This document shows positions 1-23,894 of a stretch of 64,000 nt of DNA, piece after piece (within the stretch, counting starts at the first letter, position 1; each line of letters starts with the position of its first letter). The notes under the pieces were generated by a model. It was not told the DNA's origin, ran no database searches, and saw nothing but the letters and a program-made list of their open reading frames with translations. The translations under genes were made by a program, and so were the position numbers. The stretch spans positions 8,070 to 72,069 of the forward strand of contig CAZPCQ010000001.1 in assembly GCA_964585155.1 (NCBI GenBank), read 5' to 3'. This DNA comes from an uncultured Candidatus Saccharibacteria bacterium (GTDB taxonomy: Bacteria > Patescibacteriota > Saccharimonadia > Saccharimonadales > Saccharimonadaceae).

Positions 1-593
1 AATCCATCAACTTCGACCTTATGTCCGAGACCGAGCGTGAAGGTGTTGAGTATAGTTACCAGAATTTCCTCAACTCTCTCAACTTTACTATTCAGATTCT
101 TGTTCGCTCTCAACGTGTCGATATCGGCCCTTATATTGAGCGCCTTTCCAACATCCGCCGTAACAACGACAATATGCTTCTCGGCGTCTTGATGGATGAT
201 TACATTAACTTCATCGACATTCTTTCCCAAGAAGCCAACATTATGGACAAATCCTTCTTTATTGTCATTCCATATTACAGTTCCGCCGATGCCGAAGCCC
301 TTGTCCAGCAGACCAAAAACCTGTTCAAAACTTTTGGCAAAAAAGCCCCCAACGTCACTCGTATCAATCGTGACACTTATAATAAAGCCGTCGACGAGCT
401 CAACAACCGCGTCGAAACCGTCATTTCTGGTCTATTTAATATCGGTATTCATTCCGTCCGCCTCAAAACTCGCGAACTCGCCGAACTCTATTACAACTTC
501 AATAATCCCGACACTGCCGTTCGCGAGCCTTTAGTTGACTTTACTAAGTTAGCCACCACCTATGTACGCAAAGGAGAAAAAACCAATGAGTAA
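1..593 (+). CDS. 5'-truncated T4SS-associated protein (TraC/TrsD-like VirB4 partner)
   Basis: Frame is open from the window edge (..SINFDLMSETERE..LNSLNFTIQILVRSQ..). It overlaps the start of the VirB4-like gene. Confidence 0.6.
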   Translation, partial: SINFDLMSETEREGVEYSYQNFLNSLNFTIQILVRSQRVDIGPYIERLSNIRRNNDNMLLGVLMDDYINFIDILSQEANIMDKSFFIVIPYYSSADAEALVQQTKNLFKTFGKKAPNVTRINRDTYNKAVDELNNRVETVISGLFNIGIHSVRLKTRELAELYYNFNNPDTAVREPLVDFTKLATTYVRKGEKTNE

Positions 594-2415
594 AAAAGAC
601 AAGCAAAACCAACTCTCTGCCGCCGAAATCGCTATGCAGTCCCAAGCCGCCGAAGAAGCGGAAATCCAGCAAGCCTTCGAGCAGGGGATTACCACTCTCC
701 GCGACCTCATTTCTCCTAGTTCTATTGAAATCCACTCCGGCTATTTCCGCCTCGGCACTAAATATGGCCGCACTATTTACATTTACGGTTATCCTCGCAG
801 CCTCTACACCGGTTGGCTTTCTCCTCTTATTAATATTGACGAAGTTCTTGATGTCTCTATGTATATTTATCCTGTCGAAACCGCCGTCGTCATGAAAAAC
901 CTCCGCAAAAAAGTCACCCAGCTCGAGGCTAGTTACAATGTTAATGCTGAGCGTGGCAAAGTTCGTGACCCAGAGATTGAAGCCGCCATCACCGACGCCG
1001 AAGAACTTCGTGACAAACTCCAAGTCGGCGCCGAAAAGTTTTTCCGTTTTGGTCTTTACATCACTTTGTGGGCTGATTCACTCGATGAATTGAGTTTTGT
1101 TCAACACAAGATCGAAACCATGCTCGGCCAACAAATGGTCTTCAGTAAAGTCGCCAGCTCTCAACAAGAGCAGGGAATGAACAGTACTATGCCTCAATGT
1201 ACCGACCAGCTCCAAATCCGCCGCAATATGAACACCGGTGCTATTTCCACCAGTTTTCCTTTCACCTCCGCCGACCTCACCCAAGAAAAAGGCATTCTCT
1301 ACGGTGTCAATATGCATAATAACGGTCTCGTTATCTTCGACCGCTTCAGCCTAGAAAACGCCAACCTCGTCGTCTTCGCCAAATCTGGTGCTGGTAAATC
1401 TTTCGCTGTCAAACTCGAAGCCTTGCGTTCCATGATGATCGGCGCCGAGATTCTCATTATCGACCCAGAAAACGAATATCAAAGATTATGCGATGCCGTC
1501 GGTGGTAGTTACATCCGCCTATCACTCAACTCCGACGTCCGTATCAACCCATTCGACTTACCAAAAGTAATTGATAGTGAAGATGCTAATGACGCATTAC
1601 GTGCCAACTTAGTCACTCTGCACGGTCTTTTCCGTCTTATGCTCGGCGGCAACCAAATCGGCCCTAATGGTCAAATTGTCCCCGCCTTAAGCGCCAACGA
1701 AGAAGCCGATCTCGACCAAGCCCTCATTGATACCTACGCCCGTGCTGGCATTACTAGCGACCCCGCCACTCACCAAAACGTTCCGCCAACTATTATCAAT
1801 TTATACGATACTCTACTTCATATGGGTGGCTCCGGCCCTCAGCTCGCTCAGCGCCTACGCAAATACACCACCGGTACTTTTGCTGGCATTTTCTCTCAAC
1901 AGTCTAATATTGATATCAATAACCAAATGGTCGTTTTCAATATTCGCGATCTCGAAGATGAACTCCGCCCCGTGGCCATTTATATCGTCCTTTCCCACAT
2001 TTGGAACATCGTCCGCGCCGACCAGCGCCGCCGTCTCCTCATCGTTGATGAGGCTTGGCAACTTATGCAACACGACGATTCCGCCAACTTCCTCTTCAGC
2101 CTCGCCAAGCGCGCTCGTAAGTATTATCTCGGTCTCACTACTGTCACTCAAGATGTCGAAGACTTTATGAGCACCAAAATGGGCCGTGCCATTGTCGCCA
2201 ACTCTTCTATGCAGTTATTACTCAAACAATCCGCCTCTGCCGTCGATGTTTTATCTGATGTTTTCAAACTTACCAACGAGGAAAAGAAGCGTCTCGCCAA
2301 CTTCCCAGTCGGTCACGGTCTCTTCTTTGCCGGCGCCAACCACGTCCATATTCAGATTATCGCTTCCGAGACCGAAGAATCCCTCATCACTACTCGACCA
2401 GGAGATAAGCGTTAA
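586..2415 (+). CDS. virB4: VirB4/TraE-like T4SS ATPase
   Basis: Walker A AKSGAGKS, IIDPENEY, Walker B LLIVDEAW, RARKY..TQDVEDF. RBS AAGGAG at 571-576 favours the ATG at 586. Confidence 0.85.
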   Translation: MSKKDKQNQLSAAEIAMQSQAAEEAEIQQAFEQGITTLRDLISPSSIEIHSGYFRLGTKYGRTIYIYGYPRSLYTGWLSPLINIDEVLDVSMYIYPVETAVVMKNLRKKVTQLEASYNVNAERGKVRDPEIEAAITDAEELRDKLQVGAEKFFRFGLYITLWADSLDELSFVQHKIETMLGQQMVFSKVASSQQEQGMNSTMPQCTDQLQIRRNMNTGAISTSFPFTSADLTQEKGILYGVNMHNNGLVIFDRFSLENANLVVFAKSGAGKSFAVKLEALRSMMIGAEILIIDPENEYQRLCDAVGGSYIRLSLNSDVRINPFDLPKVIDSEDANDALRANLVTLHGLFRLMLGGNQIGPNGQIVPALSANEEADLDQALIDTYARAGITSDPATHQNVPPTIINLYDTLLHMGGSGPQLAQRLRKYTTGTFAGIFSQQSNIDINNQMVVFNIRDLEDELRPVAIYIVLSHIWNIVRADQRRRLLIVDEAWQLMQHDDSANFLFSLAKRARKYYLGLTTVTQDVEDFMSTKMGRAIVANSSMQLLLKQSASAVDVLSDVFKLTNEEKKRLANFPVGHGLFFAGANHVHIQIIASETEESLITTRPGDKR

Positions 2416-2417
2416 CT

Positions 2418-5400
2418 ATGGCTACCGATACCAGAAAATCCACCAATGAGCTACAAGGCGGCGATCAACCGCTTTATCAGCCATGGAATGATTTTTCCGG
2501 TAGACCTCAAACCAGTCAAAGCCAAGACGATGTTCAAGATAACGGTCCTACCACCAGTAAAGAGAATTACGACAACGACCCTGGTTTTTATCGCAACTCC
2601 CGCGCCAACTCCGCCGTCAACACCCTTCGTAATGCCGAGAATGGCGCCTTATCCAATCGGGAAGCCGAATCTTCCTTATACACCGGTCAAGGTCGCAACA
2701 CCAATGCCAAATCCAAAGCCAAAGGCGGCAAGAAAAAAATCGGCGCTCTTATCACCATTCTTTGTATTCTCGGCGGTGGCGCTGCCTTCCTTGGCTCCTC
2801 CAACACACTCCTGCTCGACGCCGTCAATACTCTATTTACTAATGCCACTGATTATCAATACAGCCAATTTTCTCAACGTATTCTCAAACTTGTCGGTTTT
2901 AATATGGATAGCGATGATATCGTTATTACCGAAAAAAGTTGGACTGGCGCCCTTAAGTACAAACATATGTCCTCCGAATTCGAACAAAACCTCGCCAACG
3001 CCGGCTTCACTTTCGAAGGTTCCGGCGGCAAAAAAACCATGACCTGGACTTATGACACTGGCGACGGCACCACCATAACCCGCTCCGGCATCACCGCCAG
3101 CGAATTCATCGACTTATATAACAACAATGTTGACTTTCGCGGCAAATACAGTCTTGCCGCCGACAACCGTGCTATGACCGCTTTCGACGCCAGCGCCAAT
3201 GGCTCCTATCGCCACATCGGCAACACTCGTAATACTTTTAATGATTTTGAAGATACTGGCAATAACGAAACCAATCTCAAGAACTATCAAGATACCGTTC
3301 GCCCCAAGTTTGATGGCGATAGTACTACTCTCCAAACCTCAGGCAAACAAGAAGTCACCGAATACGTTGATAAATTAGATGCCAATGGCAATCCAGTTAT
3401 CGAAAATGGTCAAGTTGTCAAAGAACCAGTTACCAAAGAAGTACGACAATCCGCCTCCGATTCCGCTACCACTTCTTCCTCCGTTGATGTTGATGGAGCC
3501 AGAAGTATGATTAATAAAGTCTCTGGTGCCGTCAGTGATACTGGCAACTTCTACTGTGCCGCCATGAAATTCGGCAATATGATTTCTATGGCCATTGCTG
3601 GTAACGAAATCTATCAATCCATCCAATTCTTTATGACCCTCACTGAACCCCTCAGTAAGACCAAAGCCGGCTTCGGCGACCAGGCGCCCGTTCATCAGGT
3701 CCTCAACTGGTTTAGTACCAAAGCCGACACCGAAGTTAGTAATTTCGGCACCTTCAAGATCTCTGGCCAAGGCAAGCAGACTATCGAAGCACTTAGTCAA
3801 TCTGGCTCACCACTCGAATCTAACGGTATGCGCAATATCCTCGCTAATGCCGCACCCAATACCAAAGAAGTTAGCTCTTTCTCCCTCGAACGCGTCGACA
3901 ACTCCATCACCGGCCAGCTATCCAGTCTCGCCACTAGTAGTGATACCGCTGGTAATTGCGCCCGCTTCAGTATTACCGATAGCATAGTCTCTATCGGTCT
4001 CACTATTGCAAGTGGCGGTCTCACCAAGATTTTTGCCAACGTCATCGGCAAAGCCCTCATCGGCACCGCCATATCTGTCGCCATCAGCACCTTCTTTTCC
4101 TTCTTAACACCCACTATTCAAAACGCTTTCTTCACCAACGCTTTTGACAATGCTAAAGGTCAACCTGGCGGGGAATTATTTGCTCGCGGCAGCGGCGCCA
4201 TCGGCTCTCAAAATGCCCGTCGCAACAGCGGTTACGGTACCGCTTCCAAAACTAAAGTTATGCAATACAATAAGACTACCAACGCCGTACTCGCCCTCGA
4301 CGCCGAAGTTGACCGCCAGCGTCGCAGTCCTTTCGACATTAGTAGTCCCAATACCTTCTTTGGCAGTATCGCTTATAGTCTATTACCCACTCTCACCTCC
4401 ACCAACCTCACCGGTATTTCTTCTATCCTTACCTCCACCATGTCTTCGCTTTCTACCCTTATTGGCGGCGTTCACGCTGATGGCGAAAACTCCTCCTATA
4501 TGACCACTTTCGGCGAATGCCCTGCCCTCGAATCTATCGGCGCTACCGGTGATATGTATTGCAACCCTATACCTGTTCCCGACACTTCTACCGCCGACAT
4601 CACCCCTGACGACCAAAAATATCAAGAAGTCCTTAAAGAAGCCCAAGAGTGCGACAGTGAGGGTAACTGCACTATCAAACCCGAATCCGATCTCGCCAAA
4701 TACATTACATATTACGACGGTCGCGACTCACCTCTCGGCGTCGTCGATCAAAACATCCTCGCCGCTACGCAGCCCAGCAGCGATACTGGCATTATAGGTA
4801 CCGTCCTCAACCAAATCCCTATCGTTGGTGATATTATCAACATAGTTGACTCCGGTGCCGATATTGTAAATCTCCCCTGGGCCACTGGCGCCATCGGCTC
4901 CCAAAACGGCGGCGATAGTATCGCCAACCTCCTCGCCGCTACCGACGAAGTCGACTATAAAAACTGGTGGAACGAAAAAGGTAAATATTACCAACGCTAC
5001 GTCGAAGATTCTCGTATTCTCAATATGATGGGCGCCTACGAAGCCACCAATTCCAAAGATCCCGTCCTCGCCTACAAAGAAGAATACGAGCAAAAGTATC
5101 TCGAAGAACACCCCGAAGCCAACACCTACATCGGCTACCTCTCCCGTGTTTCCGGCCTCACTATCGAAAATACCGAAACCACTCTCGCCTTCATTGGCTA
5201 TCTCAATTATATCGATCAATACGACCCCACCCTCCGCATCGCTATGGACGGCGACACTACCGAGATCAAAACCGCCACCCAAATCGCCGCCATAGCCGCC
5301 GAGGATTATCACGCCATTTATTTCGAAAATGATAATCTAGAAACTACTTTCACTGAGCCCATTATCGCCAACCACCACATCATTTACGCCGACGTTCGTA

Positions 5401-5423
5401 ACCGGAGTTATGCCATATGTTAA
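2418..5423 (+). CDS. Large (1001 aa) membrane-anchored T4SS-cluster protein, function unknown
   Basis: Long ORF 2 nt after virB4 with hydrophobic segments (LITILCILGGGAAFL; SIGLTIASGGL..ISTFFSFL). Confidence 0.65.
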   Translation: MATDTRKSTNELQGGDQPLYQPWNDFSGRPQTSQSQDDVQDNGPTTSKENYDNDPGFYRNSRANSAVNTLRNAENGALSNREAESSLYTGQGRNTNAKSKAKGGKKKIGALITILCILGGGAAFLGSSNTLLLDAVNTLFTNATDYQYSQFSQRILKLVGFNMDSDDIVITEKSWTGALKYKHMSSEFEQNLANAGFTFEGSGGKKTMTWTYDTGDGTTITRSGITASEFIDLYNNNVDFRGKYSLAADNRAMTAFDASANGSYRHIGNTRNTFNDFEDTGNNETNLKNYQDTVRPKFDGDSTTLQTSGKQEVTEYVDKLDANGNPVIENGQVVKEPVTKEVRQSASDSATTSSSVDVDGARSMINKVSGAVSDTGNFYCAAMKFGNMISMAIAGNEIYQSIQFFMTLTEPLSKTKAGFGDQAPVHQVLNWFSTKADTEVSNFGTFKISGQGKQTIEALSQSGSPLESNGMRNILANAAPNTKEVSSFSLERVDNSITGQLSSLATSSDTAGNCARFSITDSIVSIGLTIASGGLTKIFANVIGKALIGTAISVAISTFFSFLTPTIQNAFFTNAFDNAKGQPGGELFARGSGAIGSQNARRNSGYGTASKTKVMQYNKTTNAVLALDAEVDRQRRSPFDISSPNTFFGSIAYSLLPTLTSTNLTGISSILTSTMSSLSTLIGGVHADGENSSYMTTFGECPALESIGATGDMYCNPIPVPDTSTADITPDDQKYQEVLKEAQECDSEGNCTIKPESDLAKYITYYDGRDSPLGVVDQNILAATQPSSDTGIIGTVLNQIPIVGDIINIVDSGADIVNLPWATGAIGSQNGGDSIANLLAATDEVDYKNWWNEKGKYYQRYVEDSRILNMMGAYEATNSKDPVLAYKEEYEQKYLEEHPEANTYIGYLSRVSGLTIENTETTLAFIGYLNYIDQYDPTLRIAMDGDTTEIKTATQIAAIAAEDYHAIYFENDNLETTFTEPIIANHHIIYADVRNRSYAIC

Positions 5424-7210
5424 AACACAAACTACAACTTTTTTTCAAAACTTTCCTCTGTCTCCTCCTCGCTCTCCTCATCGCCTCCCCCGCCTCCGCC
5501 GCCGACAGTTCCTACATTCAGTCTGCCGCCCTCAACGGTAGTTACTGGTACGATCCCTCCGCTCTTAATAGTAGCTGTTTTAGTAGTGATATTTCTATCT
5601 CTGGTAGTACCGCCGCTCAAAAAATCTGGTCCGGCCTCATTACTTTTATGACTCCCGAGCAAGCCGCTGGCGTCATCGGTAATATGGCCAGCGAAGGCGG
5701 TTTCAATCCCGTTCGTCACGAGATCTCCAAAAAGAATGCTCTTTGGCCCGGTTTCGATATTATGAACGACGTCTCCGATTCATATGGTATTGGCCTCATT
5801 CAATGGTCATGGGGGCGTCGCACCAAACTTCTTCATTATATCCAAAGCAACGACTCTAGTCTCATCCAATATTTTATGAATCCCGACACCTACAGTACTT
5901 ACGGTTCTGGCGACAAAACTTCCGGTGATGTTTTCCTTGAAAAAGTAGGTGATGCCGTTTTTGACCGCCTCATCCAGCTTGAGCTCGAAGTTCTCAAAAA
6001 CGAATTAAATATCAGTTACTCCGATTTCTTCAATCAAACCACCGTTTATGATGCCGCCAAATATTTCCTTGAGCGCGTCGAAAGACCCGCCAACCCTACC
6101 ATCGAAGCCCACCCCGAACGCGCCACCGCCGCCCAAACTTTTTATGACCAACTAAACGGCGCTTCTCTCACCCCATCCGGCAGTAACGGTACTAATATTT
6201 CCGGCTCCAGCATCACTATTATTGGCGATTCCATCACCGCCCGTTCCAGCAGCAGTCTCAGTAATAAACTCCCCGGCGTCGAGATTAACGCTGAAGTCGG
6301 TCGCAGTTTCGCTACCGGTATCGACATTGCTAGATCCATGGAACTCCGTAACGTCGTCGTCTTCGCCCTTGGCACCAATAGTCGCAATGTTAGCAGTGAC
6401 CAAATCCAAGAAGTCATCGATCTCGTCGGTCCTTCTCGCTCACTCTACTTCCTCACCAACTACGGCGTCGGCTACGACTTTACCAATAACAACCGTCTCT
6501 TCAATGAAGCCGCCGCCAGAAATTCCAACGTTAATGTTATCGACTGGGCCAGCTCCGTCTCTAGTAGCCCCGATAAATACATCGCCGTCAACGAATCCAC
6601 CCCGGTCCACCCCACTGCCGACGGCATCACCCTCTTTACTGATTTAATCTCTAACGCTGTTACCTCCAAAAACCTCACCAGCGACGGCTGTACTGTCAGC
6701 GGCGATTTCCAATCCACTGTTCTCGCCTACGCCTGGCCTACTCCATCCGACCCCGTCTCCACCGTCAACCAGGCTACTCCTAAACCCGAATACGCCGCCG
6801 CCGTTGCTCGTCGCCGCGCTGCCAACAAATATATCGGTACCAACGGCATTGACTGTGGCTGTTTCGTTGCCGCCGTCTTGACTGATAGTGGTTTCGCTCC
6901 TGGCTACCGTGATAATGGTATGGGTGGGGAAGAGTGGGTTATCGCCAATGGCTGGACTCTCCTCAATCCCGACGAAAACACCCCCATTTCCGACACTAGT
7001 ATTCTTCAGCCTGGCGATGTCGCCTTCTCCAACGGCGCCCCGGGCAACGCCGGCCACACCTTCCTATATGTCGGTGATATTCCTGGCTTCGGATCAAAAA
7101 TCGCTTCCGCTTCCACTGGACCCACCTGGCGCGCGCCTATGGCAGGCACAGAAAGCCTTACCCAAAGTAATTTTGGCGGCTATCCAGTTCGCTGGTATCG
7201 TAAAGGTTAA
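5417..7210 (+). CDS. Secreted cell-wall hydrolase: phage-tail-lysozyme-like + SGNH + NlpC/P60-like domains
   Basis: Signal peptide; QAAGVIGNMASEGGFNP..GIGLIQWS; IIGDS..ALGTN..VHP; DCGCFV..LQPGDV..GHTFLYVG. Confidence 0.75.
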   Translation: MLKHKLQLFFKTFLCLLLALLIASPASAADSSYIQSAALNGSYWYDPSALNSSCFSSDISISGSTAAQKIWSGLITFMTPEQAAGVIGNMASEGGFNPVRHEISKKNALWPGFDIMNDVSDSYGIGLIQWSWGRRTKLLHYIQSNDSSLIQYFMNPDTYSTYGSGDKTSGDVFLEKVGDAVFDRLIQLELEVLKNELNISYSDFFNQTTVYDAAKYFLERVERPANPTIEAHPERATAAQTFYDQLNGASLTPSGSNGTNISGSSITIIGDSITARSSSSLSNKLPGVEINAEVGRSFATGIDIARSMELRNVVVFALGTNSRNVSSDQIQEVIDLVGPSRSLYFLTNYGVGYDFTNNNRLFNEAAARNSNVNVIDWASSVSSSPDKYIAVNESTPVHPTADGITLFTDLISNAVTSKNLTSDGCTVSGDFQSTVLAYAWPTPSDPVSTVNQATPKPEYAAAVARRRAANKYIGTNGIDCGCFVAAVLTDSGFAPGYRDNGMGGEEWVIANGWTLLNPDENTPISDTSILQPGDVAFSNGAPGNAGHTFLYVGDIPGFGSKIASASTGPTWRAPMAGTESLTQSNFGGYPVRWYRKG

Positions 7211-8158
7211 ATGAGTAAAACATTTATGCAACCATCCAATCAATTTAACAAACGCAACACTATTATCCTAATCGTTATATGTACAATTATTATACTCGGA
7301 CTGATTATCTTTGGTATCGTTCGTGCCATTATTCGCTCTCACCAAGTTGAAATCGGTATCTACTATGCCCCTTTCACCGCTCAAGTTAAATTAAACGACG
7401 AGACCATCAAAAATAACTCCACCATCTGGATCGACCCCGGAGAATATCATATTACCGTTTCACTTGACCATTTCACCACGCTTAATACCACTTCTACCGT
7501 CGATCAATCCACTACCAACCTCTATGGCTCTCTTTCTCCTAGCGACGAAGAAGGTCAGCGCATCATGGAGACTTATCGCGCTGATTATGATATTATTCAA
7601 TCCCTTAATAGCGCCGCCGCCATTGCCCTAGGCGAAGCTCAACGCGCTAAATGGCCCCTTATTTCCGCCCTCCCTATTAGCAACCCTCTCTTTTCCATCG
7701 GCTACAATATTTCCACTAATGACCGCCTCACCATCAATATCAACGCCGCCACTACTTATCTCGATGACGCCATCCACACTCTCAAATCCCATCTTACCAC
7801 CAATGATTCGCTCGCCAATTACAACATCGCTTTTAATGATTGGACCAATCCACTTACTGATCAATTCCGCAGCAACACTAGCCAAGACCCCATCGAATAT
7901 CTTATTCAAGGTTATCGTCACCTCAACCCGGATCTCAATCTAGTTATTCAGTCAGGGAACTATGCTAACAACGGCCAGTATTACTATACCACTATCACTA
8001 CCGGATTCGACGAACGTTACAGTATCGTCACTTACCGCGCCATCCTCAAAAAAGACGGTACTTCTTGGCAACCCACCTCTACTCCTCAGCCTATTGTCAC
8101 TACTTATAATACTCCGGAAGTCTCCACTGACATCCTCAATGCAGCCAACAACCTATAA
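7211..8158 (+). CDS. Membrane-anchored hypothetical protein (possible PEGA-like domain)
   Basis: N-terminal TM helix; abuts the previous stop codon; followed by a terminator. Confidence 0.65.
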   Translation: MSKTFMQPSNQFNKRNTIILIVICTIIILGLIIFGIVRAIIRSHQVEIGIYYAPFTAQVKLNDETIKNNSTIWIDPGEYHITVSLDHFTTLNTTSTVDQSTTNLYGSLSPSDEEGQRIMETYRADYDIIQSLNSAAAIALGEAQRAKWPLISALPISNPLFSIGYNISTNDRLTININAATTYLDDAIHTLKSHLTTNDSLANYNIAFNDWTNPLTDQFRSNTSQDPIEYLIQGYRHLNPDLNLVIQSGNYANNGQYYYTTITTGFDERYSIVTYRAILKKDGTSWQPTSTPQPIVTTYNTPEVSTDILNAANNL

Positions 8159-8776: not shown

Positions 8777-9781
8777 TTATTCTACACTTAGTCCACCACT
8801 CCCCACACTTGTCAGCACAATCTGATTATCCCTAAAATTCTTCACTAGACACTTCTGCCTCATCTCATCCAGTTCCGAGAATACATCATCCAGTAATACT
8901 AGCGGTCTCTTCTCTAGTACCTCCAGTATCAACTCCGCCTCAATAAATTTTAACGCCAGAATGCTCGACCTCACCTCACCTCTACTCGCCGAGCCATCCG
9001 CTTTTCGTCCATTAAACACGAACTCATAGTTATCATGATGTACTCCAAAACTCGTATGTCCGAGCAGGGAATCACGCCCAAAATCCCGCTCCAGTCTCAA
9101 CAAGAAATCACTCTCTTCTTCCACTTCACTCAAATATTCCAATTTCACCTCATCCTCATTTTCCGCAATCGACCGATACACCTCCGTAAATCTCCGGTTT
9201 ATCTTCTCCATTATTTTTCTTCGCTCTTGATTTAGCGCCACTCCATGTTTTACCAGTAAAATATTCCAAGAAAACAAATCCCCTGGCATTATCATTTCAT
9301 CTTTCAATAATTCATTCCGCTGCTTCAGCGCCTTATTGTATCGCGTCAAATTCACCGCGTAGTTTTCCGATAACTGCCCAAACATCCGATCAAAATACCC
9401 CCGTTTACTCGTCGGACTCGACCCCACTAAGTGCAAATCATCCGGCTCAAACAATACAATCGGATATTGCAACTTTTTCGGCAGCCTCCCCGCTTTTTTA
9501 TCTTCCACCAAAAATTCTTTCTTCACCCCGTCATACACCGCCACTACTTTTCTGCCATCCTTATATTCCAACTCCACCCGATAAAATTCCGCCCCCCTTC
9601 GCAAAATCTCTTTATCCGCCGCCCGGAAACTTTTCCCCCGCAATACCTCATAGATCGCCTCTAGGATCGAAGTTTTCCCACATCCATTTTGCCCCATAAT
9701 AGTCGTCGTCTGCCCGGCACAATCCAGCACAAAACTCTCATGACTCCGAAAATTCACCAACTTCACTCGTCTAATTACCAT
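8777..9781 (-). CDS. recF: DNA replication/repair protein RecF
   Basis: GQNGCGKTSILEA, SASRGEVR, LLDDVFSELD; lies downstream of dnaN. Confidence 0.93.
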   Translation of the reverse strand: MVIRRVKLVNFRSHESFVLDCAGQTTTIMGQNGCGKTSILEAIYEVLRGKSFRAADKEILRRGAEFYRVELEYKDGRKVVAVYDGVKKEFLVEDKKAGRLPKKLQYPIVLFEPDDLHLVGSSPTSKRGYFDRMFGQLSENYAVNLTRYNKALKQRNELLKDEMIMPGDLFSWNILLVKHGVALNQERRKIMEKINRRFTEVYRSIAENEDEVKLEYLSEVEEESDFLLRLERDFGRDSLLGHTSFGVHHDNYEFVFNGRKADGSASRGEVRSSILALKFIEAELILEVLEKRPLVLLDDVFSELDEMRQKCLVKNFRDNQIVLTSVGSGGLSVE

Positions 9782-9914
9782 CTTTTACCTCTAATCTTTC
9801 CCTGAAGAGAATGAATTTTGAGTTAATACGCGGAAAAAGTGAAGCACGCAAGCGAACCGTATTTGACATACGGAGAGCGCGTACTGGAACTTTTGACAAA
9901 GTAGTAACCAAAAT

Positions 9915-11021
9915 TCAACTCTTCAACGGCATTACTATATGAATGTAATTATTACACCCCACCCCCTGCACCACCACCGGATCCAACCTATTCGCAAACC
10001 GGAAAATCACTTCATCCTCTACCGTCGCATTCAGTGCATCTAGCAAAAACCTCGAGTTTAGTGTTACTTTTCCATCCACTTCTACTTTCGTCGCAATCTC
10101 TGAGCTATTCTCTCCTAATTCATTCGCCACTGCCGCAATCGCAAAAGTCCCATTTTCTACACTCGTGCTGCACACTACCGACCCACCTACTTCTCGCGCA
10201 AACAATGCCGCTAATTTTGTCACTCTGATCAACTCGCTTTTACCTAATTCCACTTTCACTTCCGATTCTTTCGGGATTAACTGTCGATAATCAGGGAACG
10301 AACCATCCACCAATTTTGAAGTTACCTCAATTCCATCTAAGCGGAACTTCACTTGCGTCTCGTCAAACAATATTTCCACTTCTTCCATTTCATCACTGAG
10401 CGACCGCATCACTTCCTGTAGCGACCCCGCCGGCACAATTGCCGACACTTCCGCCTCTACTTTATCCACCAGTTTACGCTCTGCCAGCCTATATCCATCC
10501 GTCGCCGCCACATACAGTCCACCTTCAAAAGTATTAAAATACACCCCAGTTAGCGCCGGTCGCGTCATATCACTACTCGCCGCCATCATCACTTGTCCCA
10601 GCCCCGCCTTAAATTCTTCCGCCGGCACCCGGAAACTCACCATTTTCTCTTCCTCTAATTCTGGCAATTCCGGAAAATCATCCGCCAACGCTCCATTAAT
10701 CATCGACCGACAAGCCCCCGCTTTCACTTCCACTTTCGTCCCATCCGCCGTAATTTCCACCATCTCACCCCTCGGTAGATTACTCACAAACTCCGCTATC
10801 AGTTTCGCCGGTACTGTCACTACTCCATTTTGACTATCCGTTACCGGTAACACACTCATTACTGCCATATCCAAATTTGTAGTGGTTAGACTTACTTTCT
10901 TATCTTCCACTCTTACTAATACATTGCTTAAAATCGGCAAAGTTGCCCGAGATCCCGCTGCTACTCGGCTCACATTACTTAAAGCCTTCGCCAACTTTTC
11001 CTGCAAAATCTTAATTTCCAT
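9915..11021 (-). CDS. dnaN: DNA polymerase III beta clamp
   Basis: LPILSNVL, RPALTG, AATDGYRLAE, GSFPDYRQLIP, IVMPL. Confidence 0.97.
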   Translation of the reverse strand: MEIKILQEKLAKALSNVSRVAAGSRATLPILSNVLVRVEDKKVSLTTTNLDMAVMSVLPVTDSQNGVVTVPAKLIAEFVSNLPRGEMVEITADGTKVEVKAGACRSMINGALADDFPELPELEEEKMVSFRVPAEEFKAGLGQVMMAASSDMTRPALTGVYFNTFEGGLYVAATDGYRLAERKLVDKVEAEVSAIVPAGSLQEVMRSLSDEMEEVEILFDETQVKFRLDGIEVTSKLVDGSFPDYRQLIPKESEVKVELGKSELIRVTKLAALFAREVGGSVVCSTSVENGTFAIAAVANELGENSSEIATKVEVDGKVTLNSRFLLDALNATVEDEVIFRFANRLDPVVVQGVGCNNYIHIVMPLKS

Positions 11022-11040
11022 ACTTCCTTTATCAGCCCTT

Positions 11041-11288
11041 CATTATAATTTATTTAATAATAGTAATAGTAAGTACTGTGGAAATTGTGGAAAACGCTCC
11101 CCCATATCTGTTTTCCTATGTGCAAATCGACCTGCAAAACTTTCCCACAGCCACGTGCAAAACTCCGACTTTTACCCACCAAAACCCCACTTTCCGACTT
11201 TTTCACAGCCCCCTTCCAACTTTCCCACAGTCTTTCCCACAAACTTTCCCACAAACTTATCCACATTTTTTCCACAGCCACCGCATTT
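11041..11288. promoter_or_regulatory. oriC: oriC: AT-rich DUE, DnaA-trios and DnaA boxes between dnaA and dnaN
   Basis: TAA TAA TAG TAA TAG TAA (11055-11072), then GTAC and TGTGGAAAT/TGTGGAAAA (11077, 11086). This matches the B. subtilis basal unwinding layout. Further boxes at 11221, 11233, 11245, 11257 (TTATCCACA) and 11268. Confidence 0.9.
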
Positions 11289-12662
11289 TTACCCATAAAT
11301 CTGCTCCCTCAGCTCGTTTACCTGATCCCTCAGACTGAAGTTCAATTTCAGGTCCTTTTCAATTTTCTTTACTCCGTGCATCACCGTTGTATGATCCTTC
11401 ACCCCTACCTCTAGCGCAATTTTCGGCGTACTCATCCCTAAATCTTTCGACAAAATATACATCGCCACCTGCCGTGCATTCTTAATATGCGCCACCCGAC
11501 TCTTTCCGCACATTTCTTTCGGTGTTAATTGATAAAACTTCGCCACTTTTTCTACCACCATCTTCGGTGACACCGTCTTCGCTCGTGTTGCATTAACCGA
11601 GTTCGCATACCCTTCCGTAATTACCTGATAAGGCGTCATATTCTTAAAATCTGCCACCGCCAAAATATGTGTCAACTCTCCTTCCAGTGCCCGAATATTT
11701 GTCTTCACATTATCCGCAATATATTCAATCGCTTCATCTTCAATTTCCGCTCCCCGGAACTCCGCCATCGATTTTAAAATCGCGCACCGGTCCTCAAACT
11801 GCGGCATCTGCAAATCATACTCACCCGCCTGTGATAGCCGCGACGCCAATCTCACATCTACCGACTTAATCTCATTCGGCAACCGATCCGATGTTACAAT
11901 AATCTGTTTGTCGTGTTGTGTTAGCTCGTTAAAAATATCAAAAAACTCCGCCTGTGACGCATCCTTATTCATGATCATCTGGAAATCATCAACAATCAAC
12001 ACATCTAATTTTTGGAATCTCTGCCGGAATTCCTCAATTTTTTTTGTCTGCAGCGCCTTAATGAAATCTGAATAAAAACTCGATATCGGCGTATAAAATA
12101 CTTTTAGTGACGGATCTCGCTTCAAGATCTCATTTCCGATCGCCTGCACTAGATGCGTCTTACCTAGTCCCGGTCCGCCATACAGGAAAAACGGGTTGTA
12201 TCTCGTCCCCGGCGCGTCAATTACATTTTGCGCCACGTTCACCGCTAGATCGTTATTTGTACCAATCACAAAATTATCTAGCGTATATCTTGGATTTAGC
12301 CCCGTTTGTACCGACCCGTTCACTAGTGGGGAAGAACGGTAATTTGAAGTCGCCACATTTGCTAATGACTGAATCGCATCCACTGGCGGTCTCGATATAT
12401 GATTTTTCGGTTTCGGCTTCTCTCGCGTCAAAATATCATATTTTATCTCTGTGACCGCTATGTCATTATGCGTCAGCGCCATCTTGATTACATCCGAGTA
12501 TTTCGACTGCAACTGTTTCCGCTTAAACACATTCGGCACCCCAATCACAATCAAATCATCTTCTATCGAAAGTAACTCTGCTCCAGTAAACCAAGTCGCA
12601 AACTGTTCCTTCGGAATCGTCTGTTCAATCTCAGCCATCACCTTCTTCCACACATCAAGCAT
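11289..12662 (-). CDS. dnaA: Chromosomal replication initiator DnaA
   Basis: YNPFFLYGGPGLGKTHL, DDFQ, RLASR, ARQVAMY, KDHTTVMHG. Confidence 0.98.
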   Translation of the reverse strand: MLDVWKKVMAEIEQTIPKEQFATWFTGAELLSIEDDLIVIGVPNVFKRKQLQSKYSDVIKMALTHNDIAVTEIKYDILTREKPKPKNHISRPPVDAIQSLANVATSNYRSSPLVNGSVQTGLNPRYTLDNFVIGTNNDLAVNVAQNVIDAPGTRYNPFFLYGGPGLGKTHLVQAIGNEILKRDPSLKVFYTPISSFYSDFIKALQTKKIEEFRQRFQKLDVLIVDDFQMIMNKDASQAEFFDIFNELTQHDKQIIVTSDRLPNEIKSVDVRLASRLSQAGEYDLQMPQFEDRCAILKSMAEFRGAEIEDEAIEYIADNVKTNIRALEGELTHILAVADFKNMTPYQVITEGYANSVNATRAKTVSPKMVVEKVAKFYQLTPKEMCGKSRVAHIKNARQVAMYILSKDLGMSTPKIALEVGVKDHTTVMHGVKKIEKDLKLNFSLRDQVNELREQIYG

Positions 12663-18683: not shown

Positions 18684-20519
18684 TCAAACCTCTCCCCCAC
18701 TTACTCCCAGAATGATCACAAAATCCACATCCCCCGGCTCAATCCCTTCCGGCAGATCATTTATGCCTTTCACGGGTACTTTATACCGCTCTTCCAGTTT
18801 CGCTTTGGTCGCCGGGAAATCTTGTCCTACCGCATAGACACAATATTGCGCCTCACACACTCCTAATTCCGCATCACCTACCGCAATATTCTCAAATCCC
18901 ACCTCAACTAACCTATCTCTTTCCGCTCCGGCCACGCCATACTGACCGCTTGCATTATAAACTATCATCCGTGAATGCTCTCGTGTCATCGGGTCGCTGC
19001 TAAACATCTCTGCTACATATTCACGAATCTGACTATAATTACCTTCGCCCGCCGAGGGAACTACATACGATATATTATTAATCGTCGCCGTCGTCATATA
19101 GAATGTTTGTGTATCGTAATTCACCAGCGGTACTTGTCGGATATTTGCGATATTAAAGTCGCTCAGGATCTTTACCCCTGCCTTGATATTATCTGTCGAG
19201 AAATTTGACCTTAAATTATCTCCCAAGATATTCACCAAGTTAAACGCTTCCGTCACCCCTACCCCGTTTTGCACAATTTTATCCACGATTGCCTGGACGA
19301 TTTTTTGCTGTGTATTCCCGCGGGTGAAGTCTCCCCCTTGCGTCCCGTGTCGCGCCCGCGCCAAGCCCAGCGCCTGCTCACCGTTCACTGTCACTGGTAC
19401 GCCTGCCTGTGCCACCGCACCTGTCCAGCCATAATCATTAATATCTTCATCTAGCGTCACCGTAATCCCGCCCAGCGTATCAATAATATCAATCAGCGAC
19501 GCCCAGTTAATATGTGCATAATATTGGAACTTAATCCCCAAAATCGTCCCGATTTGGTCCATCAATGCCTGCGCCCCGGCTTCCTCATTTGTCCCATCTT
19601 GGTTATGACACCAAAAGACTTCGTTAATTTTTCCCGCCGAGCACGCCATCGAGACTTTTAGATCCCGCGGCAGACTCAGTAGTGCTACATCCTTCGTATT
19701 CTGGTCTACACTCACCACCATAATCGAATCCGTCAGCTGTGACCCACCGTGCTCGCCGTAAGCCGTGTCGCCACTCATATTATAGCCTTCCGTCCCGAAG
19801 ACCAAAACATTCGTCCTCCCGTTTTTATCCGTCTCAAACGGCACCGCATCCGATACCATCGAATGAATCGCATCCCACAAGCCCGAGCGTCCACCGGTTA
19901 GTCGTGCGATCAACTCATCCCCCCACTTATACACAATTCCACCGCCAATTACTAATATTCCTAGTATCACCGCCGTCACAATTCGCCCAATATGGCGTTT
20001 CTTCTTCGGCGCCCGTACTCGACGCTTCGGTTTTGTTGGCTCTTCTGGCTCATCTTCCTCTTCTGTTTCGTCATCCAGTACACTCTGCGCCAAAAACTCC
20101 CGCGTATCACCCTCTCCGCCCCATTCGCTCAGAAAATCACTCTCCGCCGTCTCATTTTTACTATAATTATTATACTGCGGCGCATTATTCTCCTGGCTTG
20201 CCAATAGTTCCGACCAATCCGCTTCCGCCCCCGCGTTAAAATCATCATTCGGCTCATTCATCTCTTCCGCATCAAAATCAAATGTCTGCACTGGATCCAA
20301 GAATGAGTTTACGGCCGGATTCTTCTTTTTTATCTTATCAATCGAGTTCAAGGCCGCTCGTCGCTCTGTTCGCGAGCGTTCTACCTGTGCGTGAGCCGCT
20401 TGCGTGCGGGTCGTCAAATCGACGGTATGCGCCGATGCCGAACGCCGCGCCGTATTCACAGCACGATTTGGTTGCGCATCATCCCGCACTTTTAACCCGT
20501 CAATTGTCGTCCTTGCCAT
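18684..20519 (-). CDS. LCP (LytR-CpsA-Psr) family glycopolymer transferase with LytR_C domain
   Basis: TNVLVFGT, TDSIMVV, LSLPRDL, ARARHG..GDFTR..QQ, VYNASG; RBS GAGGAG before the ATG at 20519. Confidence 0.9.
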   Translation of the reverse strand: MARTTIDGLKVRDDAQPNRAVNTARRSASAHTVDLTTRTQAAHAQVERSRTERRAALNSIDKIKKKNPAVNSFLDPVQTFDFDAEEMNEPNDDFNAGAEADWSELLASQENNAPQYNNYSKNETAESDFLSEWGGEGDTREFLAQSVLDDETEEEDEPEEPTKPKRRVRAPKKKRHIGRIVTAVILGILVIGGGIVYKWGDELIARLTGGRSGLWDAIHSMVSDAVPFETDKNGRTNVLVFGTEGYNMSGDTAYGEHGGSQLTDSIMVVSVDQNTKDVALLSLPRDLKVSMACSAGKINEVFWCHNQDGTNEEAGAQALMDQIGTILGIKFQYYAHINWASLIDIIDTLGGITVTLDEDINDYGWTGAVAQAGVPVTVNGEQALGLARARHGTQGGDFTRGNTQQKIVQAIVDKIVQNGVGVTEAFNLVNILGDNLRSNFSTDNIKAGVKILSDFNIANIRQVPLVNYDTQTFYMTTATINNISYVVPSAGEGNYSQIREYVAEMFSSDPMTREHSRMIVYNASGQYGVAGAERDRLVEVGFENIAVGDAELGVCEAQYCVYAVGQDFPATKAKLEERYKVPVKGINDLPEGIEPGDVDFVIILGVSGGEV

Positions 20520-20591
20520 CAAACTCCTCATTATTAGTCCAAAATCTGGACTTACCCAATTAATATTTGTGTGATATACTTATTATAACAT

Positions 20592-21725: not shown

Positions 21726-23894
21726 ATGTCAAAGTTCACCCAAGAACTACAATCCGAGTTTTCCGCTCGTCGTAATCTACTCTTTGTGGTTTTTGCTTTT
21801 TGTATGGTCGCCACGCTCTCATTTTTTGCGACTAGCCGTATGCACGAATCTTCCGCTGCCAATCTTAGTAACTTTACTCCTGGTAATATTATCAGTGATG
21901 CCGTGATGTCTAATTATAGTTCTATGAGCGAACAAGATATTCAAAACTTCCTCAATAGTAAGAATAAGTGTGATAATCGCGATTACAATCTTTACCTGCA
22001 GTACACTAGTTCCAAGCCCACCATTTCTTGGCATTGGGAAGGCGAGCCTTACAATGGTCATTTTGTTTGTCTAGCCGAAGAAAAGTTTGGCGAAACTGCT
22101 TCCGAGATTGGTACCGGCAAAACTGCCGCTCGGATTATTTACGAAGCCGCTCAGGCTAATCATATCAATCCTCAGGCTCTCCTCGTCCTTTTGCAAAAAG
22201 AATCTAGCCTCATTACTGACAAAGTTCCCAATTCTTACGACTATGGCCAAGCCACCGGTTACGGCTGTCCTGATACCGCCGCTTGTGATAAAAAGTATTC
22301 TGGCTTTAGCAATCAAGTTCACCGCGCCGCCGAACTTTTCCGCTATGTCCTCGACCACAACTCTGTTTATTATCCCGCTGGCCGTACTGTCTACGTTGGC
22401 TATCATCCTAATTCCAGCTGTGGCGGCACTCAAGTCCTCATCGAAAATCGCGCCACTGCCGCCCTCTATCAATACACGCCTTATCAGCCCAACGCCTCTT
22501 CTCTCGCCGCTGGTTATGGCCAAGGCGACACCTGCTCCGCCTACGGCAACCGCAATTTTTATCTTTATTTCACTGATTGGTTTGGCAGCACTCAGGCCGC
22601 CGTTGAAGGGGAACTAGTGGATATTCCGGACGGTTCCTATACTTTAGTTTCCGGACTTTCCGAGCAGCGCATTCTCGGCGCCTCTTCTCGTAATGTCCAG
22701 CTGAGTAATATTACCGCCGCTGATACCTGGACTATCAAGCGCGATACTAATGGCTTGTATGAACTTACCAATGCCGCCACCAACCTCCCGCTCTCCGTTG
22801 ATCAGTCTCAACCCGAATCCGGCACCAACGTTTCTGTCCGTGCCACTTCCACTGAATGCGCCAAAAAATGGAAAATTTACCAAACCAAAGATGGCTACCT
22901 CACTTTAGAATCTTCCTGTACCAGTGGTTTCGTTCTCGATGTTAATGGTGGCTCTTCTGCTGTTGGTACCAATATCCAGACTTATATCACCAACGCCAGC
23001 CTTTCCCAAAAATGGCACCTCCGCGCCAGCCAAACCCTCGACGACGGTGTCTATACTATCTCTTCTGCACTCGACCGCAGTGCTATGATTGACGTTGCCG
23101 GCGGTGGTACTCACAATGGTGCTAATATTCAGATCTATGAGAACAACCAAACCCTCTCTCAGAAGTGGCTCATTCAATACGATTCTAGTACTGGTCATTA
23201 TACTATTACAAACCCACTTTCCAATAAATCCATCGACATTTCTTATGGCAATATCAAAGATGGTACCAATATCTGGCTTTATGAGCATAATAGTACTTGT
23301 TCTCAGCAATGGAATATTATTGAATCCGCTGGTCGTTATGTTATTTCTTCTGCTTGTTCACCTCTTAAAGTTCTTGAACTCAAAAACAAATCTACTACTA
23401 ATAGCACTAACATCCAGCTCCAAACTTATGACCGTGATCACCTTGGCGAATCTTGGGTTATTACCAAATCTCCTGAGCCTTCCGATGGTACTTATGCGAT
23501 TCACGCTCGTCTTGATAACGATCAATTACTCGACGCCTCGAACGGCAATGTTCAACTTTATCAATCCCAGTCCGACCGTAACCAAAAATGGACCATCAAA
23601 AAATCTGTCACCTCGGGATATTACACTATCGTTGATCAATCTTCCGGCCAAGCCATAGATATTAAATATGGTGACATTCGCAACAGTACCAATATTTGGC
23701 TCTACGACCAGAACAACACTTGTTCTCAACAATGGTATATTATCGAAAGTCGGTCTGACCATTATACGATTTTCTCTTCTTGTGTCTTAAATTATACTCT
23801 TGATGTTACTTACGGTGATGCTCGTAATGGCACTAATATCCAACTTTATCAGTCCAACGGTACGATTTCCCAAGAGTGGTATTTTGCTCGTTAA
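21726..23894 (+). CDS. Surface protein: lysozyme-like N-terminal domain plus ricin-B lectin repeats
   Basis: INPQALLVLLQKES..ATGYGCPD; repeated QxW ricin motifs (GANIQIY..SQKW, GTNIWLY..CSQQW). Confidence 0.75.
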   Translation: MSKFTQELQSEFSARRNLLFVVFAFCMVATLSFFATSRMHESSAANLSNFTPGNIISDAVMSNYSSMSEQDIQNFLNSKNKCDNRDYNLYLQYTSSKPTISWHWEGEPYNGHFVCLAEEKFGETASEIGTGKTAARIIYEAAQANHINPQALLVLLQKESSLITDKVPNSYDYGQATGYGCPDTAACDKKYSGFSNQVHRAAELFRYVLDHNSVYYPAGRTVYVGYHPNSSCGGTQVLIENRATAALYQYTPYQPNASSLAAGYGQGDTCSAYGNRNFYLYFTDWFGSTQAAVEGELVDIPDGSYTLVSGLSEQRILGASSRNVQLSNITAADTWTIKRDTNGLYELTNAATNLPLSVDQSQPESGTNVSVRATSTECAKKWKIYQTKDGYLTLESSCTSGFVLDVNGGSSAVGTNIQTYITNASLSQKWHLRASQTLDDGVYTISSALDRSAMIDVAGGGTHNGANIQIYENNQTLSQKWLIQYDSSTGHYTITNPLSNKSIDISYGNIKDGTNIWLYEHNSTCSQQWNIIESAGRYVISSACSPLKVLELKNKSTTNSTNIQLQTYDRDHLGESWVITKSPEPSDGTYAIHARLDNDQLLDASNGNVQLYQSQSDRNQKWTIKKSVTSGYYTIVDQSSGQAIDIKYGDIRNSTNIWLYDQNNTCSQQWYIIESRSDHYTIFSSCVLNYTLDVTYGDARNGTNIQLYQSNGTISQEWYFAR

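Follow-up and report, generated by a model that had tools for sequence, protein, structure and literature searches.

A wall hydrolase of Saccharibacteria, encoded in a type IV secretion system (T4SS) operon, carries a third module between its lysozyme and its cysteine peptidase. The nearest characterized relatives of this module are O-acetyltransferases, and this raises the question of what such a domain does in the company of two degradative enzymes. The gene is found at positions 5417-7210 of a 64,000-nucleotide stretch of DNA (the window; GenBank assembly GCA_964585155.1, contig CAZPCQ010000001.1, positions 8,070 to 72,069 of the forward strand) from an uncultured Candidatus Saccharibacteria bacterium of the gut, an ultrasmall epibiont of other bacteria, and its product has 597 residues. 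Sequence comparison places the SGNH module in a sizeable separate clade beside the OatA-C domain of the O-acetyltransferase OatA, and most members of this clade carry wall-hydrolase domains. The reading favored here is that the module is an O-acetyl esterase that would unblock glycan strands for the adjacent gp13-type lysozyme, with a probability of roughly 0.5. A sequence-only reading of the DNA had described three modules within one secreted protein, and Pfam, phmmer, Foldseek and the signal peptide agree that the lysozyme, SGNH and NlpC/P60-like modules are all real. The features of the protein are the following.

5417..7210, + strand: three-module exported wall hydrolase (P0001), 597 aa; open reading frame (ORF) call, Pfam, phmmer, AlphaFold2 model and Foldseek
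5417..5500, + strand: Sec signal peptide, residues 1-28, with cleavage between ASA and AD; read from the sequence, with a helix at residues 2-22 in the model
5594..6166, + strand: gp13-type "phage tail lysozyme", residues ~60-250, with Glu93 at the catalytic position; PF18013 and gp13 profile match
6200..6664, + strand: OatA-C-like SGNH domain, residues ~262-416, with S272, V295-G296-R297, N321, E393 and H398; phmmer, Foldseek and motif tables
6590..6616, + strand: variant Block V loop N-E-S-T-P-V-H-P-T; comparison of DNA and protein with the closest relative (L081/P0006)
6689..7207, + strand: divergent NlpC/P60-like cysteine peptidase, residues 425-597, with Cys480 and His547; GIDCG/GHTF motifs, PF00877 matches of relatives and weak PDB matches

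The SGNH module features the motifs GDS (residues 270-272), VGR (295-297), GTN (319-321) and TPVH (395-398). The GDS and GTN motifs named in the sequence-only reading are thus located at 270-272 and 319-321. The Block I GDS, which includes the nucleophilic Ser272, is invariant in 53 of 53 family domains, and Block II (VGR) and Block III (GTN) of the SGNH superfamily are both present. The motifs of OatA-C have been reported as GDSV, (V/I)(G/S)(R/V), G(T/V)N and Dx(I/V)H (PMC5697884); the window protein has GDSI, VGR and GTN, and the Dx(I/V)H position reads TPVH. The Pfam match of the module to GDSL_2 is weak (E=0.092). A phmmer search of the PDB identified the OatA-C structures of S. aureus (6wn9/6vjp, E=1e-11; 5ufy, E=5.6e-5). 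The AlphaFold2 model of the whole 597-aa protein has a mean predicted local distance difference test score (pLDDT) of 81.7, and Foldseek determined that the best match of the SGNH module is S. aureus OatA-C (SaOatA-C, 6VJP) with a TM-score of 0.85-0.86, a root-mean-square deviation of 2.0-2.6 Å and 28-29% identity. Generic SGNH esterases rank after OatA-C, with TM-scores of ~0.55-0.6. HMMER searches and structure prediction had been proposed as a check on the domain, and they uphold the SGNH fold with OatA-C as the best match (TM-score 0.85).

The module had been likened to both OatA-C and Ape. The first half of this comparison is borne out by phmmer and Foldseek, but the Ape lineage is not, since Ape1 appears neither in the top 50 PDB fold matches nor in the phmmer PDB matches at E<=1. 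Membership of the Ape family is therefore unsupported by the sequence and fold searches, and the domain is only ~155 aa long and lacks an insert, whereas Ape1 of Neisseria is GDSL-2/CE3-like with an inserted CBM35-like domain. The likeness to Ape1 is in the proposed activity, as Ape strips O-acetyl groups from N-acetylmuramic acid (MurNAc) so that glycan-cleaving enzymes can act (PMC6174289). The likeness to OatA-C is structural: both have a compact SGNH fold of ~155 aa with GDS, VGR and GTN and with Ser, His and Asn at equivalent positions. Unlike OatA, the window protein has no AT3 membrane domain and its SGNH module is fused to wall hydrolases. Unlike OatA-C, its Block V reads TPVH with a Glu five residues before the catalytic His (His-5), and it falls in a separate, hydrolase-fused block of the tree. 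The Asp four residues after the nucleophilic Ser (S+4), which orders a water molecule in SaOatA (PMC9487903), is an Arg in the window protein. OatA-C is a transferase, and the activity of the window module is a prediction.

The locus search had been seeded with the lysozyme and was blind to any association between SGNH and lysozyme domains, so a search with the SGNH module only was used. Among 1.84 billion cluster representatives this search returned 1935 matches at E<=1e-3 and 367 at E<=1e-10, and the best 149 representatives were scanned with Pfam for fusion partners. The PF18013 lysozyme is present in 80 of the 149, on either side of the SGNH domain. The counts by rank are as follows.

PF18013 lysozyme: 51 in ranks 1-74, 29 in ranks 75-149
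C39_2-like peptidase: 17 in ranks 1-74, 6 in ranks 75-149
CHAP: 13 in ranks 1-74, 11 in ranks 75-149
M23: 4 in ranks 1-74, 4 in ranks 75-149
M15_4: 2 in ranks 1-74, not listed for ranks 75-149
AT3 (PF01757): 0 in ranks 1-74, 12 in ranks 75-149
Glucosaminidase: 1 in ranks 1-74, 3 in ranks 75-149
Amidase_2 / Amidase_3: not listed for ranks 1-74, 2 / 1 in ranks 75-149
LysM: not listed for ranks 1-74, 1 in ranks 75-149

About 50 of the 149 have no recognizable wall-hydrolase domain, and 48 are "SGNH only" by local hidden Markov models (HMMs), some of them short or fragmentary. Among the proteins of ranks 1-74 that are AT3-negative by Pfam is P0127, a fragmentary OafA/YrhL-type acyltransferase from Atopobiaceae. 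This acyltransferase (P0127/P0233) is, among AT3-linked proteins, one of the closest to the window module. The nearest SGNH relatives are mostly fused to wall hydrolases, which argues for a functional link between the SGNH module and wall degradation. The best match of the SGNH-only search (P0089, 811 aa) features a lysozyme followed by tandem SGNH-like stretches (GDSL_2 at 284-423 and GDSL at 438-599).

A maximum-likelihood tree of 171 SGNH domains was built with a quick search. All 11 AT3-linked domains, SaOatA-C included, are found in two basal groups, and a block of 147 domains holds 98 of the 99 domains fused to a lysozyme, together with 41 that have other fusion partners, and none of the 11 AT3-linked ones. 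The window module is thus placed by its sequence in a clade of its own beside OatA-C. Additionally, the association extends beyond Saccharibacteria. Plasmids of Corynebacterium encode a 713-aa protein with an M23 domain, an OatA-C-like SGNH domain (GDS, GTN, DGVH) and an NlpC/P60 domain. In the C. kefirresidentii plasmid NZ_CP067011 its gene (L082:8335-10476) is located between those for a VirB4-like ATPase and a coupling protein, in a T4SS gene cluster of the conjugation type that includes a MobF relaxase; the plasmid is typed as mobilizable in PLSDB. Judged by these sequences, SGNH-bearing T4SS wall hydrolases occur in Actinobacteria too, the phylum to which the hosts of cultured Saccharibacteria belong. 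Similar SGNH matches are present in plasmids of C. striatum and of other Corynebacterium.

Whether the window module can be an active enzyme depends on its Block V. The DxxH motif is not present: His398 is kept, Thr395 occupies the position three residues before it (His-3), and Glu393 is located at His-5. The loop of the closest relative (L081/P0006, 66% identity) is KYISSDGVHPT and that of the window protein is KYIAVNESTPVHPT. The DNA change behind the variant consists of a 9-nt in-frame insertion and substitutions that convert Asp to Thr and Gly to Pro. A frameshift or assembly artefact was ruled out, since the insertion is in frame and no other frame encodes SDGVH. The replacement of DxxH by TPVH, noted in the sequence-only reading, is therefore correct, but it is not a one-off degeneration. 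The His-3 acid is absent and an acid is present at His-5 in 25 of 145 hydrolase-fused domains (~17%), and the ~815-aa SGNH-LYS-x-NLPC class as a whole carries D-S-M-T-V-H. The His-3 acid is kept in all 11 AT3-linked domains. The recurrence of the His-5 acid speaks for a working alternative Block V loop, in which Glu393 probably stands in as the triad acid for His398.

Lysozyme-fused SGNH domains keep the Ser in 98 of 99 cases and the Block III Asn and the His in 94 of 99 each. The identity of the window SGNH module to its eight closest relatives (P0006-P0012) is 59-67%, and the two flanking modules have 56-71% and 59-83%. Decay of the module was ruled out on this basis, as its identity to relatives matches that of the flanking domains. 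The near-invariance of Ser, Asn and His, together with conservation as strong as that of the neighboring modules, argues for a working SGNH enzyme. These results bear on the view that the module is catalytically crippled and serves as a glycan-binding or spacer module between two active hydrolases. That view can point to the change of the DxxH Asp to Thr with a 3-residue insertion relative to a protein of 66% identity, to the reduction of OatA-C activity to 10-13% by D-to-N or D-to-A changes (PMC5697884), and to a few relatives (P0025, L049) in which the His is lost altogether. It is very unlikely given that Ser272, Gly296, Asn321 and His398 are intact, that the domain is conserved as strongly as its neighbors, that the His-5 acid characterizes whole subfamilies, and that SGNH esterases with a Ser-His dyad exist, namely those of family CE2 (PMC9487903). 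In the relatives themselves, the catalytic His is replaced by Arg in P0025 and L049:7998-10115, and GTD takes the place of GTN in P0018 and P0025; the SGNH module is probably inactivated in some lineages.

The core of the hydrolase joins a glycan-strand cleaving domain to a predicted NlpC/P60-like peptidase for stem peptides. The lysozyme module proposed from the sequence is present and could be specified as the type found in phi29 gp13. Pfam PF18013 (Phage_lysozyme2) matches the 597-aa protein with E=1e-19 and 71.5 bits, and the gathering cut-off is 28.2 bits. A profile from ten relatives matches the lysozyme domain of phi29 gp13 (3CSR/3CSQ) with E=2e-11, and in this alignment GNMxxE(93)S of the window protein pairs with GNMQSE(45)S of gp13, so that Glu93 corresponds to gp13 Glu45. 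Glu93 is invariant across 28 full-length relatives. The phage tail-knob protein shares with the window protein a homologous lysozyme, an aligned catalytic Glu and the pairing of a glycosidase with a peptidase for crossing a Gram-positive wall. However, the partner in gp13 is an M23 metallopeptidase, there is no SGNH domain, and gp13 is a virion protein rather than a T4SS component.

In the esterase reading, the hydrolase would act after Sec export where the T4SS crosses the thick wall. Ser272 and His398, with an oxyanion hole of Asn321 and Gly296 and probably Glu393 as the acid, would hydrolyze the O-acetyl esters at MurNAc C6, which otherwise block lysozyme-type cleavage. The lysozyme domain would then cut the exposed glycan strand and the cysteine peptidase would cut the cross-links. 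Whether a species carries the SGNH module would then depend on O-acetylation of the wall that is to be opened.

The alternative chemistry is that the module has retained the ancestral activity of OatA-C and adds O-acetyl groups to glycan strands, which might mark or protect the edges of the T4SS hole or shield the wall of the epibiont from its own lysozyme. The nearest solved structures and the nearest characterized lineage are indeed O-acetyltransferases, and the window protein retains a VGR Block II with the transfer-favoring Val. There is also the precedent of PatB, which was first named as an esterase (Ape2) and later proved to be a transferase (PMC6174289); for this reason sequence does not reveal whether such a domain hydrolyzes or transfers. 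However, no AT3 or MBOAT protein that could act as a donor partner was found in the hydrolase, the T4SS operon or the 35 window ORFs scanned, glycan block genes included, and for a protein that is soluble and secreted no source of acetyl groups is evident. A protective modification also fits poorly with a fusion to two degradative enzymes. Mutagenesis studies on OatA-C are pertinent here: replacement of the His-3 Asp leaves 10-13% of the esterase activity in both OatA-C enzymes, the D568N change in SpOatA abolished transfer (transfer was measured only in SpOatA), and a Val-to-Gly change in Block II increased hydrolysis and decreased transfer (PMC5697884). The loss of the His-3 Asp in the window protein thus speaks against transfer. 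Only 57 of 99 lysozyme-fused domains retain the Block II Val, and the residue three positions after the Ser (S+3), hydrophobic in 11 of 11 AT3-linked domains, is often E, N or D in the fused ones. The positions that favor transfer in OatA therefore appear relaxed in the fused clade. Retention of the transferase activity is considered highly improbable, and hydrolysis is argued over transfer on the combined grounds that no AT3 or MBOAT partner was found, that the protein is predicted to be soluble and secreted, that its fusion partners are degradative and that the transfer-favoring positions are relaxed.

A different substrate has also been considered. The SGNH module could deacylate another envelope polymer and so clear the way to the wall, as has been proposed for the esterase tailspikes and tail-tip SGNH domains of phages; the polymer might be an O-acetylated polysaccharide of the wall, a teichoic or teichuronic acid, a capsule or exopolysaccharide, or the target might be the ester-linked lipids of actinobacterial envelopes. 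BFVD matches show SGNH domains in tail and tail-tip proteins of many phages. The Tal protein of phage 80alpha resembles the window protein in having an SGNH domain, C-terminal in Tal, on a wall-penetrating device, and its activity is unestablished (PMC7048315). The same module is found in the T4SS hydrolase of the Corynebacterium plasmids. The envelope of Corynebacterium has ester-linked mycolates. SGNH domains are also paired with peptidases where a lysozyme is unrecognizable. This substrate is nevertheless regarded as unlikely, because the closest characterized relatives act on MurNAc C6 of peptidoglycan, the identifiable fusion partners are all peptidoglycan enzymes with no polysaccharide depolymerase or lipase-associated domain among them, and the gp13-type lysozyme is present in over half of the nearest relatives.

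The link to a T4SS that had been proposed is well founded, as the hydrolase is located in an operon with virB4 in which genes abut or overlap. The features of the region are the following.

21..593, + strand: N-terminal piece of virB4, counterpart of SEML1_0009; weak matches to NCBIfam profiles of VirB4/TraC, in their N-terminal part, and the same split in ML1
562..2415, + strand: VirB4-like T4SS ATPase, 617 aa; NCBIfam conju_CD1110 (E=1.9e-110) and Pfam TraG P-loop (E=7.9e-30)
2418..5423, + strand: T4SS membrane protein of 1001 aa, positional equivalent of SEML1_0007; homologues at the same position (phmmer) and synteny with ML1
7211..8158, + strand: PEGA-like protein, either exported or in the membrane, encoded at the end of the operon and similar to SEML1_0005; sub-threshold Pfam PEGA match (E=7.4e-4), conserved position in related loci and ML1 annotation
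8777..12662, - strand: recF, dnaN and dnaA, converging on the T4SS operon; Pfam matches, and the order of SEML1_0001-0003 and of most related loci

The 2418-5423 gene shares its last 7 nt with the hydrolase gene, and the next gene starts at 7211. The recF, dnaN and dnaA genes, beyond which rnpA and yidC are found, adjoin the operon and identify the locus, by gene order, as the origin-proximal chromosomal T4SS of Saccharibacteria. An origin from a mobile element or phage is unsupported, as the locus is chromosomal and adjoins the replication origin; phage records match either the gp13 lysozyme part alone or the SGNH part separately, and plasmid records match the SGNH part alone.

The best characterized counterpart is from Southlakia epibionticum ML1, in which the gene order is dnaA, dnaN, recF, SEML1_0004, 0005 (PEGA), 0006, 0007, 0008 (VirB4), 0009 and 0010 (PrgI) (PMC10633639). 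SEML1_0006 is a 643-aa protein with a glucosaminidase domain, PF18013 and a cysteine-proteinase fold, and transposon sequencing determined that it is essential for epibiotic growth; the ML1 T4SS as such is essential (PMC10633639). SEML1_0006 has been noted as a likely substitute for VirB1 in Patescibacteria (PMC12102498). The two loci share the order virB4, large membrane protein, hydrolase and PEGA protein, converging on recF/dnaN/dnaA, and both hydrolases are exported proteins in which the PF18013 lysozyme is followed by a C-terminal domain of cysteine-proteinase fold. By synteny and architecture the window hydrolase is the positional orthologue of this essential T4SS wall hydrolase. The difference is that SEML1_0006 has an extra N-terminal PF01832 glucosaminidase-like domain and no SGNH, whereas the window protein bears an SGNH module and lacks the glucosaminidase.

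The slot beside virB4 is kept in most of 80 related genome loci, the architectures of which were scanned with domain HMMs built from the family. The commonest architecture at the virB4...recF slot is LYS-NLPC (~430-460 aa); the others are LYS-SGNH-NLPC (~590-640 aa, the type of the window), SGNH-LYS-x-NLPC (~815 aa), LYS-SGNH and SGNH-LYS. A 446-aa protein from one locus (L010) aligns to window residues 13-248 with 53% identity and to residues 430-596 with 48%, and its interdomain linker has 16 residues versus ~180 in the window protein. Since this protein matches both flanks and differs in the linker, the alignment indicates that the SGNH module is a discrete cassette of ~180 aa that is inserted or deleted in the interdomain linker. 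In some loci a second, SGNH-first paralogue of 601-1155 aa is found beside or near the LYS-SGNH-NLPC gene (L002:9806-11611, L003:9806-11623, L005:5764-8982 and L009:889-4356). These paralogues feature the SGNH domain followed by a weak lysozyme match and/or NlpC/P60, which gives two SGNH modules per T4SS locus.

Several results weigh against the assignment of the module as an esterase that serves the lysozyme. The characterized SGNH-AT3 enzymes (OatA, OafA/B) are all transferases, with acetyl supplied from the AT3 domain (PMC9487903), and OatA-C has little esterase activity, lower than that of Ape by a factor of 45-252 (PMC5697884). The window protein itself keeps the VGR Block II with its Val and has lost the canonical Block V Asp, and the role of Glu393 is deduced solely from the recurrence of an acid at His-5. 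The support for the fused clade is only moderate (SH-aLRT 86, a Shimodaira-Hasegawa-like approximate likelihood ratio, from a quick search). SGNH domains are also fused to peptidases without a recognizable lysozyme, so the link may be to wall degradation generally and not to the muramidase. Many sister species do without the module, and it is absent from the essential ML1 orthologue. Finally, the esterase assignment presupposes an O-acetylated wall, whether that of the host or that of the epibiont.

This wall could be that of the host, that of the epibiont or both. The sequence-only reading had placed the enzyme at the wall of a Gram-positive host, and such a host is presumed solely from cultured relatives. 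The Atopobiaceae acyltransferase match hints that the likely host phylum carries OatA-like enzymes in the same habitat, as Atopobiaceae are gut and oral Actinobacteria. Alternatively, the hydrolase may open only the wall of the epibiont itself for T4SS assembly, like VirB1, CwlT and PrgK. The Saccharibacterial T4SS is homologous to conjugation machines of monoderms, whose hydrolases act on the donor wall (PMC12102498), and the Corynebacterium plasmid with its conjugation-type T4SS cluster carries an analogous SGNH-containing hydrolase; by analogy, both favor the epibiont's own wall. CwlT (ICEBs1), PrgK (pCF10) and TraG (pIP501) resemble the window protein in combining glycan-cleaving domains with NlpC/P60 or CHAP domains and in being encoded in a T4SS operon beside VirB4, and they are needed for T4SS function (PMC12102498). 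They differ from it in that their glycosidases belong to different families and SGNH is reported for none of them. Additionally, their systems transfer DNA, whereas the Saccharibacterial T4SS has no recognizable coupling protein or relaxase (PMC10633639). Sequence searches of the PDB matched no CwlT, PrgK or TraG chain, and membership of the CwlT family is unsupported by sequence or fold searches. The phage-tail ancestry of the lysozyme (an outside-in type), the predicted free secretion without a membrane anchor and the rapid turnover of modules at a fixed locus favor the host wall, the wide variation in modules being a better fit to varied host walls. The ML1 annotation table, which covers ML1 and not the present genome, contains no OatA-type AT3-SGNH gene. 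Action on the epibiont's own wall only is therefore possible but rather unlikely.

A wider proposal can be made. The hydrolase-fused SGNH clade could be an OatA-derived lineage that exchanged the addition of the MurNAc O-acetyl group for its removal, a "Gram-positive-wall Ape" carried on secretion systems and mobile elements. The presence, absence and position of the SGNH module in the T4SS hydrolase slot of Saccharibacteria would then match the O-acetylation of the host, and the module would be a swappable host-range cassette. This proposal is tentative and, on present evidence, more doubtful than probable. An O-acetyl-peptidoglycan esterase coupled to OatA is not known in Gram-positive bacteria (PMC6174289). 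For Saccharibacteria, both the wall-hydrolase slot of the T4SS and its essentiality have already been published, and gp13-type lysozyme, NlpC/P60 and SGNH domains are of known kinds. A literature search found no paper that pairs Saccharibacteria with peptidoglycan O-acetylation, no description of an SGNH-lysozyme fusion that acts on O-acetylated peptidoglycan, and none of an SGNH domain in a T4SS wall hydrolase, of a hydrolase-fused sister clade of OatA-C or of the recurrent variant Block V loop.

The locus thus points to a large undescribed sister clade in the OatA lineage, with members in the essential T4SS of Saccharibacteria and in T4SS clusters of Corynebacterium plasmids. Peptidoglycan O-acetylation is a major mechanism of lysozyme resistance. 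An esterase would show how epibionts and conjugative elements cross O-acetylated walls, would allow the wall chemistry of the hosts of uncultured Saccharibacteria to be told from a simple marker in the sequence, and would offer enzymes that sensitize O-acetylated walls to lysozyme. If the switch from OatA to esterase is true, the clade would represent a counter-measure to this classic resistance mechanism. If the module is not an esterase, it is still a strongly conserved and unexplained part of an essential machine.

The cysteine peptidase module is divergent. The NlpC/P60 assignment made from the sequence holds in that conserved Cys and His motifs are present and relatives match PF00877, but the Pfam scan of the 597-aa protein gave no PF00877 match for the C-terminal module at E<=0.1. 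PF00877 is matched by 17 of 28 full-length relatives (best E=1.7e-6), among which Cys480 (GIDCG) is invariant and His547 (GHTF) is nearly invariant. In a PDB sequence search the family profile pairs GIDCGxFV with GIDCSGFV of Spr/MepS, a weak match (E=0.026). The C-terminal domain was modeled separately, since SGNH matches had filled the Foldseek list of the whole model, and this model has a pLDDT of 88.5. Its PDB fold matches at ranks 1-13 are NlpC/P60 or CHAP wall peptidases or amidases except for rank 6, which is a phi812 baseplate chain whose fold is unstated; they include MepS, SagA, PlyPy and LytE, and they are weak (E 0.011-0.19, TM-score 0.24-0.49). MagC and Tse1 come after these. The sequence motifs and the model are consistent with a divergent member of the NlpC/P60 superfamily, and the module is treated as such.

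The N-terminus of the protein, MLKHKLQLFFKTFLCLLLALLIASPASA followed by AD, reads as a typical Sec signal with an AxA site and without a lipobox, so the product should be soluble and exported. The closest relatives of the protein are from metagenome-assembled genomes of Saccharibacteria and "Candidatus Nanosyncoccus" from the guts of ruminants and other animals, with identities of at most 54% among species representatives and 66% for a Logan contig. Two linker cysteines, C54 before the lysozyme and C425 before the peptidase, are kept in relatives of every architecture, and these relatives have only 3-5 Cys in total per protein. A C54-C425 disulfide may staple the modules of the hydrolase together.

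The remaining genes of the operon show few domain matches. The membrane protein at 2418-5423 has no Pfam or NCBIfam match, and its phmmer homologues are found at the same position in most related loci. The ML1 counterpart (1113 aa) ends in a domain of DD-peptidase fold, and none was detected in the window protein. The two virB4 ORFs (21-593 and 562-2415) overlap by 32 nt, and the first continues, with its frame unchanged, beyond the left edge of the window. A frameshift in virB4 was ruled out, since the same two-gene split is present in ML1 (SEML1_0009 and SEML1_0008), and in the Saccharibacterial T4SS a virB4 of two ORFs seems to be native.

The window also contains a long cell-surface glycan block (16457-48328), which is found downstream of the origin region. 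It includes an LCP ligase (18684-20531), a ricin-lectin protein with five repeats (21726-23894), several glycosyltransferases of families GT2, GT4 and GT8, a Wzm/Wzt ABC exporter (32794-34761), a UDP-galactopyranose mutase (34752-36152), a WcaJ-like initiating transferase (42916-44343) and a Wzy-like protein (46334-48328).

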